A stretch of DNA of 26,158 bases, from assembly GCA_964451115.1 (NCBI GenBank), contig CAYVGF010000005.1:1-26158 (forward strand), in the 5' to 3' direction. Shown in pieces: positions 2 to 1,957 of this stretch (positions are counted from its first letter, which is position 1; each line of letters begins with the position of its first letter). The translations under genes were made by a program, and so were the position numbers. The notes under the pieces are model-generated. The model was not told the origin of the DNA. It searched no databases and worked only from the letters and a program-made list of their open reading frames with translations. This DNA comes from an uncultured Candidatus Saccharibacteria bacterium. GTDB taxonomy: Bacteria; Patescibacteriota; Minisyncoccia; UBA6257; GWB1-50-10.

Positions 2-75
2 TGGTGCGGGATACGGGAATCGAACCCGTGCCTTCAGCTTGGGAAGCTGATATTCTGCCCCTAAACTAATCCCGC
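2..75 (-). tRNA. tRNA-Gly, anticodon CCC, encoded 3' CCA
   Basis: The minus strand folds as a cloverleaf: acceptor GCGGGAT/ATCCCGC, D-stem GTTT/GAAT, anticodon stem TCAGC/GCTGA with loop TT-CCC-AA, T-stem ACGGG/CCCGT with loop TTCGATT, then A-CCA. Confidence 0.96.
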
Positions 76-1754
76 TTTGGCAGATTTAATTTTTTAACTT
101 CTTTTTCTATTTCGCTTTCTTCAATTTTTTCAAACAGCGGCTTTGGTTCGGAAATTTCAACCCTGGCCAATAAAGTCTCCAGCGATTCTTTTTCGTTTTC
201 CGGCCAGCTCTCCAGTTTGATGCCAAGCATTTTAGACAGCTTTCCGTCTGTTTCAATTAAAAGCGGTTTGCCGGCTAAAAACAAGGCCAGAACGGCAAAA
301 AGCGCGTTGGTTAAAATTTCTTTTTTCTTGCTTTCATCCTTAACCAGCCAAGGAGTTTTAACGCTGAGATACTTATTGCCCGCCTCGGCTAACTGAACCA
401 GGGCCTCAATGTAATCCCGAAACCTGCCTTCCGCCAGGCTCCGCTTCGCCAAACTTATCCGGCGCAAAACATCTTCAGCCCAAGCGGCGTCCAAGTCTTC
501 TGGGGCAAACCTTCGGAAATCTTTAGCCAAATTTAAAGTCCGGTTGATAAAATTAGCGTAAGTGCCGATTAAAACGTTGTTGTGGCGGGCGGCAAAATCC
601 TGCCAACTGAAATTAGCGTCAGTTTTCTCCGGCATGATGGCGGTAAGATAAAACCGGACCGGATCTATGCCGTATTTTTCAGAAATATAACCGGAATCAA
701 CAACAACTCCCCGGCTCTTGGAAAACTTTTGGCCCTCCAAAGTCAGGTAATGGTTGATGAAAGGCACATCCGGCAAATGAAGTTCAGGATGAAAAACATG
801 AAGCTCGCCTGGCCAAAATAAAGTATGGAAAACCAAATTATCCTTGCCCATAAAATAATAATGCTCTGAATCCGCAGTAAGCCAAAAATCTTTCCAATCT
901 TTATTATATTTTTCCGCCCATTCAATAGAAGCTGACAAATAACCGATAACCGCTTCAAACCAAACGTAAATCCTTTTATGTTCAACGCCTTCAATTAGCT
1001 GGCTTTTTGGAATTTCTTTAACCGGAATTTCAATCCCCCACTCCAGATCCCTGGTGATAGCCCGGGGCTTCAAGCCAGCCTTAAGCCAGCCGGCTGTTTC
1101 TTCTCTAATCCAACCGCGCCAAGCCGCGCTTTTATTTGAAACATAACCTGCCAAAAAATCGCTAAGTTTAGGCCAGTCAAAGAAATAATGTTCGGTTTCC
1201 TTCAAAATTACTTCATCGCCAGTGATTTTGCTTTTGGGGCTTTTCAGCTCGCCTTCTTTAATCAGCCGGCCGCAGTTGTCACACTGGTCGCTGCGGGCAT
1301 TCTCAAACCCGCAGTAAGGGCAAACGCCTTCCACATACCGATCCGGCAAAAACCGGCCTTCTTTTTCAGAGTAATACTGGCGGGTAAAATCCTTAAAAAT
1401 AAATCCCTTCTTTAAGCTCTCAATAAAAAACTGCTGAACTATCTGGCGATGGTTGTCAGTGGTTGTTTTGGTAAAAATGTCAAAACTTAACCGCAGTTTT
1501 TTAAATAAATCTAGGTGGTGTTTATGGTAAATATTTACAATTTCCGCCGGCGGCAGATTTCTTTTCTCGGCTTCAATCGTAATCGGGGTACCGTAAGAAT
1601 CGGACCCCGAAACCATTAACACTTGGTTGCCGAGCAATCGGTGAAACCGGGCAAAAATATCAGCCGGCAAAAGGTAGCCGGCCAGATGCCCAATGTGGAT
1701 ATCGCCGTTGACATAAGGCCAAGCTACTCCAATAAAAATCCGTCTTTTAGCCAT
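66..1754 (-). CDS. metG: Methionyl-tRNA synthetase, ~562 aa, no C-terminal tRNA-binding appendage
   Basis: Motifs AWPYVNGDIHIGH, Zn knuckle CPYC..CDNC, YVWFEA, GKDN and KFSKS. Start placed at ATG 1754 (MAKRRIFIG) instead of the ORF-track 1856, whose extension runs through the structured RNA. Confidence 0.96.
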   Translation of the reverse strand: MAKRRIFIGVAWPYVNGDIHIGHLAGYLLPADIFARFHRLLGNQVLMVSGSDSYGTPITIEAEKRNLPPAEIVNIYHKHHLDLFKKLRLSFDIFTKTTTDNHRQIVQQFFIESLKKGFIFKDFTRQYYSEKEGRFLPDRYVEGVCPYCGFENARSDQCDNCGRLIKEGELKSPKSKITGDEVILKETEHYFFDWPKLSDFLAGYVSNKSAAWRGWIREETAGWLKAGLKPRAITRDLEWGIEIPVKEIPKSQLIEGVEHKRIYVWFEAVIGYLSASIEWAEKYNKDWKDFWLTADSEHYYFMGKDNLVFHTLFWPGELHVFHPELHLPDVPFINHYLTLEGQKFSKSRGVVVDSGYISEKYGIDPVRFYLTAIMPEKTDANFSWQDFAARHNNVLIGTYANFINRTLNLAKDFRRFAPEDLDAAWAEDVLRRISLAKRSLAEGRFRDYIEALVQLAEAGNKYLSVKTPWLVKDESKKKEILTNALFAVLALFLAGKPLLIETDGKLSKMLGIKLESWPENEKESLETLLARVEISEPKPLFEKIEESEIEKEVKKLNLPKRD

Positions 1755-1761
1755 TGGTTTA

Positions 1762-1789
1762 AGTTTAAAAAAATGAAGCGATAAATCAA
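1762..1789 (-). promoter_or_regulatory. Sigma70-type promoter for metG, leaderless geometry
   Basis: TTGATT (1789-1784), 16-nt spacer, TAAACT (1767-1762), then 7 nt to ATG 1754. Confidence 0.55.
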
Positions 1790-1797
1790 ATTCCACT

Positions 1798-1942
1798 AAA
1801 AAAGATCCCGCTTGTAGATTCTCCGGCTCTATTGAGCAAGTGGGTTCTCTCAGCATATAGCCCCCGAACGAATCAGCAGACTATAGCGCTTTCGAGATCC
1901 CTAACCGGAAATTTTGACCCGGAATCTATCATAGCGGGATCT
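1798..1942 (-). ncRNA. Candidate ~145-nt structured ncRNA, 6S RNA-like rod with a central bubble
   Basis: The closing stem AGAUCCCGCU/AGCGGGAUCU plus UAGAUU/AAUCUA and CCGG/CCGG encloses a central bubble and an upper irregular stem. An extended -10 lies 6 nt upstream and a U6 tract ends it. Existence is better supported than the 6S identity. Confidence 0.6.
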
Positions 1943-1948
1943 GTTGTT

Positions 1949-1957
1949 ATTATACCA
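1949..1957 (-). promoter_or_regulatory. Extended -10 promoter (TGgTATAAT) for the candidate ncRNA
   Basis: TG-g-TATAAT at 1957-1949. The predicted +1 at 1942 coincides with the first base of the closing stem. Confidence 0.65.

Follow-up and report, generated by a model that had tools for sequence, protein, structure and literature searches.

The window, by which we mean the whole stretch of 26,158 nucleotides analysed here, carries on its minus strand metG (methionyl-tRNA synthetase) and, directly upstream of it, the 145-nt element that is the subject of this analysis. Further upstream on the same strand lies a 161-aa ORF with CxxC pairs (the "Zn-finger gene", 2010-2495), which stands between ndk and the RNA and ends in a terminator composed of a hairpin (1998-1978, minus strand) and a T-run. 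A sequence-only reading of this DNA had described here the terminator of the upstream gene, the promoter element TGgTATAAT, a long closing stem and a run of six U residues, and all of these are present in the sequence at the coordinates it gave. The features of the locus are listed below in the order in which they would be transcribed, under the assignment that we consider very probable.

1949-1957, minus strand: extended -10 promoter TGgTATAAT; A1942 is the seventh base past the hexamer
1798-1942, minus strand: probable 6S RNA gene, a rod of ~139 nt plus U-tail, 145 nt in all, with a predicted start at A1942
1919-1942, minus strand: 5' strand of the closing stem (P1a, 1933-1942, AGAUCCCGCU; P1b, 1919-1928, UAGAUUCCGG)
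1902-1918, minus strand: 5' side of the central bubble (17 nt; GUCAAAAUUUCCGGUUA), which forms no pairs in the consensus structure
1894-1901, minus strand: 5' strand of P2, GGGAUCUC, which bears the invariant GGGA, shows covariation and matches GGGag of the 6S consensus
1852-1893, minus strand: apical arm P3, with the tip GCUGAUUCGUUCGG at 1864-1877
1842-1851, minus strand: 3' strand of P2, GAGAGAACCC, which pairs and covaries with 1894-1901
1827-1841, minus strand: 3' side of the central bubble, 15 nt; the invariant ACCCAC is 1845-1840
1803-1826, minus strand: 3' strand of the closing stem (CCGGAGAAUCUA, 1815-1826; AGCGGGAUCU, 1803-1812), which pairs and covaries with 1919-1942
1798-1803, minus strand: U-tract, straight after the closing stem, whose first U (1803) closes the stem
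66-1754, minus strand: metG, a neighbour outside the element, with its true start at ATG 1754

The closing stem is formed by AGAUCCCGCU, which begins at A1942 and pairs with AGCGGGAUCU (1812-1803), and is followed by UUUUUU. Together with this U-tract, the rod itself is predicted to act as an intrinsic terminator. The 145 nt of the minus strand fold with -63.4 kcal/mol, compared with -40.4 +/- 3.9 kcal/mol for dinucleotide shuffles (z = -5.84; 0/200 as good), whereas the plus strand of the same stretch reaches only -48.6 kcal/mol, showing that the stability is strand-specific. The helices that the sequence-only reading had proposed (UAGAUU/AAUCUA, CCGG/CCGG, GGG/CCC, UCUC/GAGA and UAUAGUC/GGCUAUA), together with its bubble, coincide with the consensus structure of the family described below, and 45 of the 46 consensus pairs form in the window copy. 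In the minimum-energy fold of the single sequence, the 5' CCGG pairs locally with a window-specific CCGG inside the bubble; in the alignment, unlike in this single-sequence fold, the conserved pairing is CCGG/CCGG across the rod. The small hairpin GCUC-AAUA-GAGC in the 3' side of the bubble is likewise specific to the window copy.

Conservation and covariation of the rod

The host genome comprises 590 kb in 68 contigs and is 96% complete. BLASTN searches recovered homologues of the element from four other genomes of the family, at 71-75% identity, and the consensus rod derived from these five sequences already contained 13 compensated pairs. Two covariance models were built, R1 from the five sequences and R2 from 32 sequences, with which the window copy scores 127.8 and 112.6 bits, respectively. 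R1 found matches in 89 of 96 family genomes, and the RNA was present as a single copy in all but three. When R2 was applied to sampled genomes at wider taxonomic range, counting one copy per genome, matches were obtained in 108 of 151 genomes of the order, 66 of 151 of the class and 21 of 151 of the phylum. The members of the family are 111-162 nt long, with a median of 126 nt; the window copy, at 145 nt, falls within this range and, like the median, is well short of the ~200 nt quoted for 6S RNAs.

An alignment of 91 sequences was used to examine the pairing. Across the consensus structure, 90.6% of cells were paired, as against 65.6% in shuffles and 38-52% when the partners were slid by 1-3 columns. 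Compensatory changes on both sides of a pair occurred in 40 of 46 pairs, and none of 500 shuffles reached any of the observed measures. Structural conservation in relatives, which the sequence-only reading had named as a check on its proposal, was thus found, and covariation was likewise seen in the 32-sequence alignment. Every pair of the closing stem showed compensatory changes, with 84-99% of cells paired per helix. In P2, GGG pairs with CCC in 89-90 of the 91 sequences and the next four pairs covary, and compensatory changes were present in 14 of the 16 pairs of the apical arm P3. At the level of primary sequence, GGGA and ACCCAC reach a conservation of at least 96% over the 91 sequences, and the family consensus of the 5' bubble side begins with AUCAAA. 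Judged by this conservation and covariation, 1798-1942 is a conserved gene and no chance hairpin.

The tip motif of the apical arm is absent from about half of the 91 members and is therefore dispensable. The arm as a whole is a hotspot of change: a hairpin of ~20 nt has been inserted in some genera (L009, L010, L013, L015, L036), and the GCUGRUUCGUYCGG tip is replaced by a short loop in about half of the 91 members (L025, L033, L035 and many order-level loci).

In three family genomes the RNA is duplicated in tandem, the second copy lying 80-100 nt past the first on its downstream side. These second copies, listed here by locus or contig, retain the closing stem, the CCGG, the start of the 5' bubble and the apical tip, and have lost the invariant GGGA and ACCCAC; they may represent either a 6S-2-like paralogue or a decaying duplicate.

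L021, 1737-1876, plus strand: tandem second copy
L019, 1282-1419, minus strand: tandem second copy
G022, contig C2, 42562-42704: tandem second copy

Relationship to 6S RNA

6S RNA is widespread in bacteria, mimics an open promoter and holds back RNA polymerase, and is among the few global regulators of bacterial transcription. The Rfam model of this RNA, RF00013, has a curated gathering threshold of 46.4 bits. With this model, the window copy gave no match on the window region at E <= 10, and the whole host genome gave none at E <= 1, leaving no other 6S candidate. The Rfam scan of the window at gathering score returned only the tRNA at 5-75, and at E <= 10 the interval 1700-2050 contained only terminator-like chance matches, which fell on the terminator of the upstream gene.

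The homologues behaved differently from the window copy. When 20 order-level homologous loci were searched with all 4227 Rfam families, RF00013 was the sole family matching at the RNA sites, with full-length matches of 30, 25.4 and 24.3 bits; one order-level locus searched alone with RF00013 gave E = 1.2e-4. The Rfam scan that the sequence-only reading had recommended gave no match for the window copy itself and RF00013 alone for its homologues, and the confident match to another known family, which that reading had held would count against its 6S label, did not appear at the RNA sites. In the 151 order genomes, the three best RF00013 matches fall on R2 sites. In the 151 class genomes, RF00013 matches 11, one of them above the gathering score (G248, 52.1 bits, 171 nt), and nine of these 11 loci are matched by R2 at the same coordinates. 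The G248 RNA itself scores 68.5 bits with R2 (E 4e-15). It shares 53% identity with the window copy over 133 aligned positions, with the apical GCUGAUUCGUUCGG identical, and carries ~18-20 extra bases at each end, which extend the closing stem.

The correspondence extends to individual positions. The near-invariant nucleotides of the family are GGGA, which opens the stem above the bubble, and ACCCACYUG, which enters the 3' side of the bubble; they coincide with the upper-case positions of the Rfam 6S consensus, GGGag and caCCCACCUgg, in the same structural places. The 5' bubble of the homologues aligns with that of the Rfam consensus, and the nucleotides that flank the 6S bubble (GGGA; CACCCACCUGG in the Rfam consensus) are present in the family. 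The 6S-type rod, made up of a closing stem, a large central bubble and an apical stem-loop, is found both in the window copy and in the consensus, whereas the usual 6S length of ~160-200 nt with extended arms is unmatched by the 145-nt window copy. In architecture, the RNA is most like the B. subtilis 6S-1/Aquifex aeolicus type of 6S RNA (SsrS; RF00013), which has the same rod built of a closing stem, a large bubble and an apical arm, the bubble being bordered by GGGA (5') and CACCCACCUG (3'). It also shares with 6S RNA its status as a single-copy housekeeping gene.

Since the window copy has no RF00013 match of its own, its membership in the 6S family is a matter of transitive homology. The RF00013 matches in relatives, the link between R2 and the G248 RNA and the shared invariant motifs argue for a 6S RNA with a shortened closing stem. 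On these grounds 1798-1942 (minus strand) is very probably an ssrS-type gene for a miniaturised 6S RNA. The sequence-only reading had offered a short, divergent 6S RNA as one of its two explanations, and this is the one that the homology supports.

The RNA could instead be a new housekeeping small RNA that resembles 6S only in shape and acts on another partner, its weak Rfam scores reflecting shape together with a chance motif. Such an origin would explain why the window copy has no Rfam match and why most members lie below the 6S gathering threshold or go undetected (RF00013 exceeds its threshold in one of the 151 class genomes and never in the family), and it would fit a size far below that of canonical 6S. 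However, the curated 6S threshold is exceeded by one homologue to which the family model also gives a strong match, the invariant nucleotides fall on those 6S positions that are best conserved, in equivalent parts of the structure, RF00013 alone of 4227 families matches at the RNA sites of the 20 loci, and no other 6S was found in the genome. We therefore regard a mere lookalike as unlikely.

A lineage-specific, shortened 6S-like rod that escapes the main 6S model has a precedent in the 6S-Flavo RNA (RF01685) of Flavobacteria. The present RNA resembles 6S-Flavo in these respects, but it gave no match to RF01685 in the Rfam scans and its conserved motifs are those of RF00013.

The signal recognition particle (SRP) had to be considered as well, because no SRP RNA is detectable: neither the small nor the large SRP model (RF00169/RF01854) found one in the host genome or in the 96 family genomes. 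The element, which is near-universal and single-copy, might then be the missing SRP RNA of the lineage, too divergent for the Rfam models, and like bacterial SRP (4.5S) RNA (RF00169) it is a small, near-universal hairpin housekeeping RNA with paired ends. What is missing along with the RNA is its protein partner. No Ffh M domain (PF02978) was found in any of the 96 family or the 151 phylum genomes, of which several are closed; for PF00448, the GTPase domain of SRP54 and FtsY, the 151 phylum genomes gave only Walker-A-level matches of <=26 bits; and a motif scan of all ORFs of the host genome revealed neither Ffh nor FtsY. The protein searches were positive in 14/14 control genomes. With no SRP-type GTPase in the host genome by profile search or motif scan, an SRP RNA would have no protein partner here. 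SRP RNAs carry a universal tetraloop and loops at the apical tip; the tip of the present RNA is variable and often deleted, domain IV motifs are lacking, and the conserved parts are the edges of the central bubble, as in 6S. The absence of Ffh/FtsY and the dispensable apical tip thus rule out the identification as SRP RNA, the probability of which we put at practically nil. By these searches the SRP system as a whole appears to be missing in the lineage, which, if it is no search artefact, would amount to the loss of a near-universal system.

Transcription unit and gene neighbourhood

In 73 of the 91 loci, the end of a TAnnnT hexamer precedes the modelled start of the RNA by 3-12 nt (mode 6), and the -10 box has a TG extension in 51 of the 91, against a background expectation of ~0.01 per such window. 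At the other end, a run of at least four T residues lies within 12 nt past the RNA in 23 of the 91 homologues and within 70 nt in 83 of the 91; where the rod is not trailed by U residues, a separate terminator hairpin is present. These signals mark the RNA as a transcription unit of its own, whose extended -10 promoter is conserved and whose predicted terminator consists of the rod and U-tract. In three small metatranscriptomes from the same study, of a microbial mat, the stretch was not found, which speaks neither for nor against its expression. Canonical 6S RNA (~180-200 nt) has a distal closing stem, which is absent from this family of 111-162 nt. Because the rod often is the terminator here, end processing seems unneeded, and the ends of the RNA appear to be set by promoter and terminator instead.

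The gene downstream of the RNA in the window is metG. The ORF list extends metG to ATG 1856, inside the RNA, which the sequence-only reading had judged a false extension; alignments of MetRS homologues, which begin at residues 1-5 of the protein read from ATG 1754, favour the later start. That reading had also ascribed to metG a promoter of its own past the U-tract, and a candidate, TTGATT-16 nt-TAAACT, is indeed found at 1789-1762 (minus strand). This candidate promoter (window 1762-1789) ends 7 nt before ATG 1754, and no Shine-Dalgarno sequence accompanies it.

In the window and at 17 of 30 family loci the RNA immediately precedes metG in the same orientation, and it has a terminator-like end, as would be expected of a cis-acting leader or riboswitch of metG that attenuates through the rod and U-tract upon sensing MetRS, tRNA-Met or a methionine-related ligand. 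Outside the family, however, metG is the downstream gene at none of 59 loci in other families and orders. The other downstream genes are unrelated (RDD protein, LD-carboxypeptidase, unknown families) or, elsewhere, have the opposite orientation (Na/Ca exchanger, M14 peptidase). Moreover, the 5' strand of the terminator stem sits at the very 5' end of the transcript, so that there is no evident antiterminator; the RNA has no CAU triplet and so cannot mimic the tRNA-Met anticodon; the element has no T-box, riboswitch or other cis-regulatory Rfam match; and metG has the candidate promoter of its own. The synteny, namely the varied downstream genes and the lack of metG outside the family, leads us to reject a metG leader, which we consider extremely improbable. 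The stand-alone gene that the sequence-only reading had preferred is borne out by these downstream genes and by the promoter at fixed distance.

The conserved neighbour of the RNA, on the loci surveyed, is instead the upstream gene ndk, which precedes the RNA on the same strand at 25 of 30 family, 13 of 29 order and 21 of 30 class loci (59/89 in total). This arrangement raises the question of whether the RNA derives from the ndk 3'-UTR or is co-transcribed with ndk, with a function linked to nucleoside diphosphate kinase and not to RNA polymerase. Against such an origin stand the conserved promoter at a fixed distance from the RNA 5' end, the whole gene with its own terminator that separates ndk from the RNA in the window, and several other loci at which ndk is convergent (downstream and on the opposite strand); the 6S homology, in addition, holds whatever the neighbours. 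We consider an ndk-derived RNA very unlikely. For the 6S gene that we favour, the linkage to ndk may still exceed chance, because the release of 6S RNA depends on NTP levels.

Only in this genome does the zinc-finger ORF stand between ndk and the RNA; in the four relatives found by BLAST, ndk ends 20-50 nt before the RNA promoter. The ORF, together with its terminator, has the appearance of an insertion specific to the lineage.

Proposed mechanism and meaning of a probable miniaturised 6S RNA

If the RNA works as E. coli 6S and B. subtilis 6S-1 do, its rod would mimic an open promoter and fill the active-site cleft of the RNA polymerase that contains the housekeeping sigma factor. The motif in the 3' side of the bubble would act as the "-10-like" element, which in E. 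coli 6S is a key contact of RNA polymerase in the 3' bubble (PMC8876501). The 5' side of the bubble (1902-1918) is the presumed template for product RNA (pRNA), whose synthesis would probably start at the U/C that is conserved in the AUCAAA motif (in the window, GUC). This pRNA would then unzip the closing stem and refold the 6S RNA, thereby freeing the enzyme.

Two forms of refolding were considered. A release hairpin of the E. coli type, between the CYUGG of the 3' bubble and the CCGGG of the 3' strand, has pairing potential but finds no support in covariation, being paired in 74.2% of cases, as against 73.1% in shuffles. The distal part of the 5' bubble and the 3' strand of the closing stem, by comparison, have a mean complementarity of -3.16 kcal/mol in their own pairs and -2.26 kcal/mol in cross pairs (0/5000 permutations), a moderate effect in a test that is inflated by sequence relatedness. 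The same complementarity reaches -5 kcal/mol or lower in 27 of 90 sequences, against 6-7 in reversed and wrong-strand controls. It resembles the collapse helix of 6S-1 and Aquifex 6S, and a likeness to 6S-1 in this respect is possible (PMC8876501), although the complementarity is suggestive only.

A natural 6S RNA of 111-145 nt is plausible because truncated B. subtilis 6S-1, of which just the bubble and two short arms remain, still goes through the full 6S cycle in vitro: it binds sigma-A RNA polymerase ~10-fold more weakly, templates pRNA and is released (PMC8876501). The minimal architecture of the present RNA is comparable to that of these engineered molecules (PMC8876501). Unlike the laboratory constructs, however, it is a natural conserved gene that has kept a long apical arm and in which mainly the closing stem is shortened.

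A large group of ultra-small (CPR/Patescibacteria-like) bacteria thus seems to have conserved a shortened 6S RNA, which the standard model almost always misses in them. The kind of RNA, 6S, would be already known, and what would be new is its miniaturised variant. In the open-access literature, we found no paper that connects Patescibacteria or the candidate phyla radiation with 6S RNA. We put forward tentatively, as an idea whose chances are somewhat below even, that these RNAs constitute a distinct miniaturised 6S subfamily of 111-160 nt, which would include the shortest natural 6S RNAs, lack the distal closing stem and have its ends set by the promoter and the rod terminator; as part of this suggestion, the subfamily might correspond in nature to the 6S-1 constructs that were engineered as "bubble plus two short arms".

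The finding has practical consequences for annotation, since RF00013 exceeds its threshold in one of the 151 class genomes, compared with 66 by the family model. A dedicated model would annotate 6S in hundreds of genomes and would allow false N-terminal extensions of neighbouring genes to be corrected, as for metG here. Natural 6S RNAs of 111-145 nt would also offer a minimal scaffold for structural and mechanistic study of promoter mimicry. For the organisms themselves, analogy with known 6S RNAs suggests that growth-phase control of RNA polymerase may be retained at genome sizes of 0.5-0.9 Mb. If this holds true, 6S RNA has been kept in 0.5-0.9 Mb genomes in which SRP proteins and SRP RNA were not detected, and 6S control of RNA polymerase would be one of the last forms of RNA-based regulation to survive extreme genome reduction.
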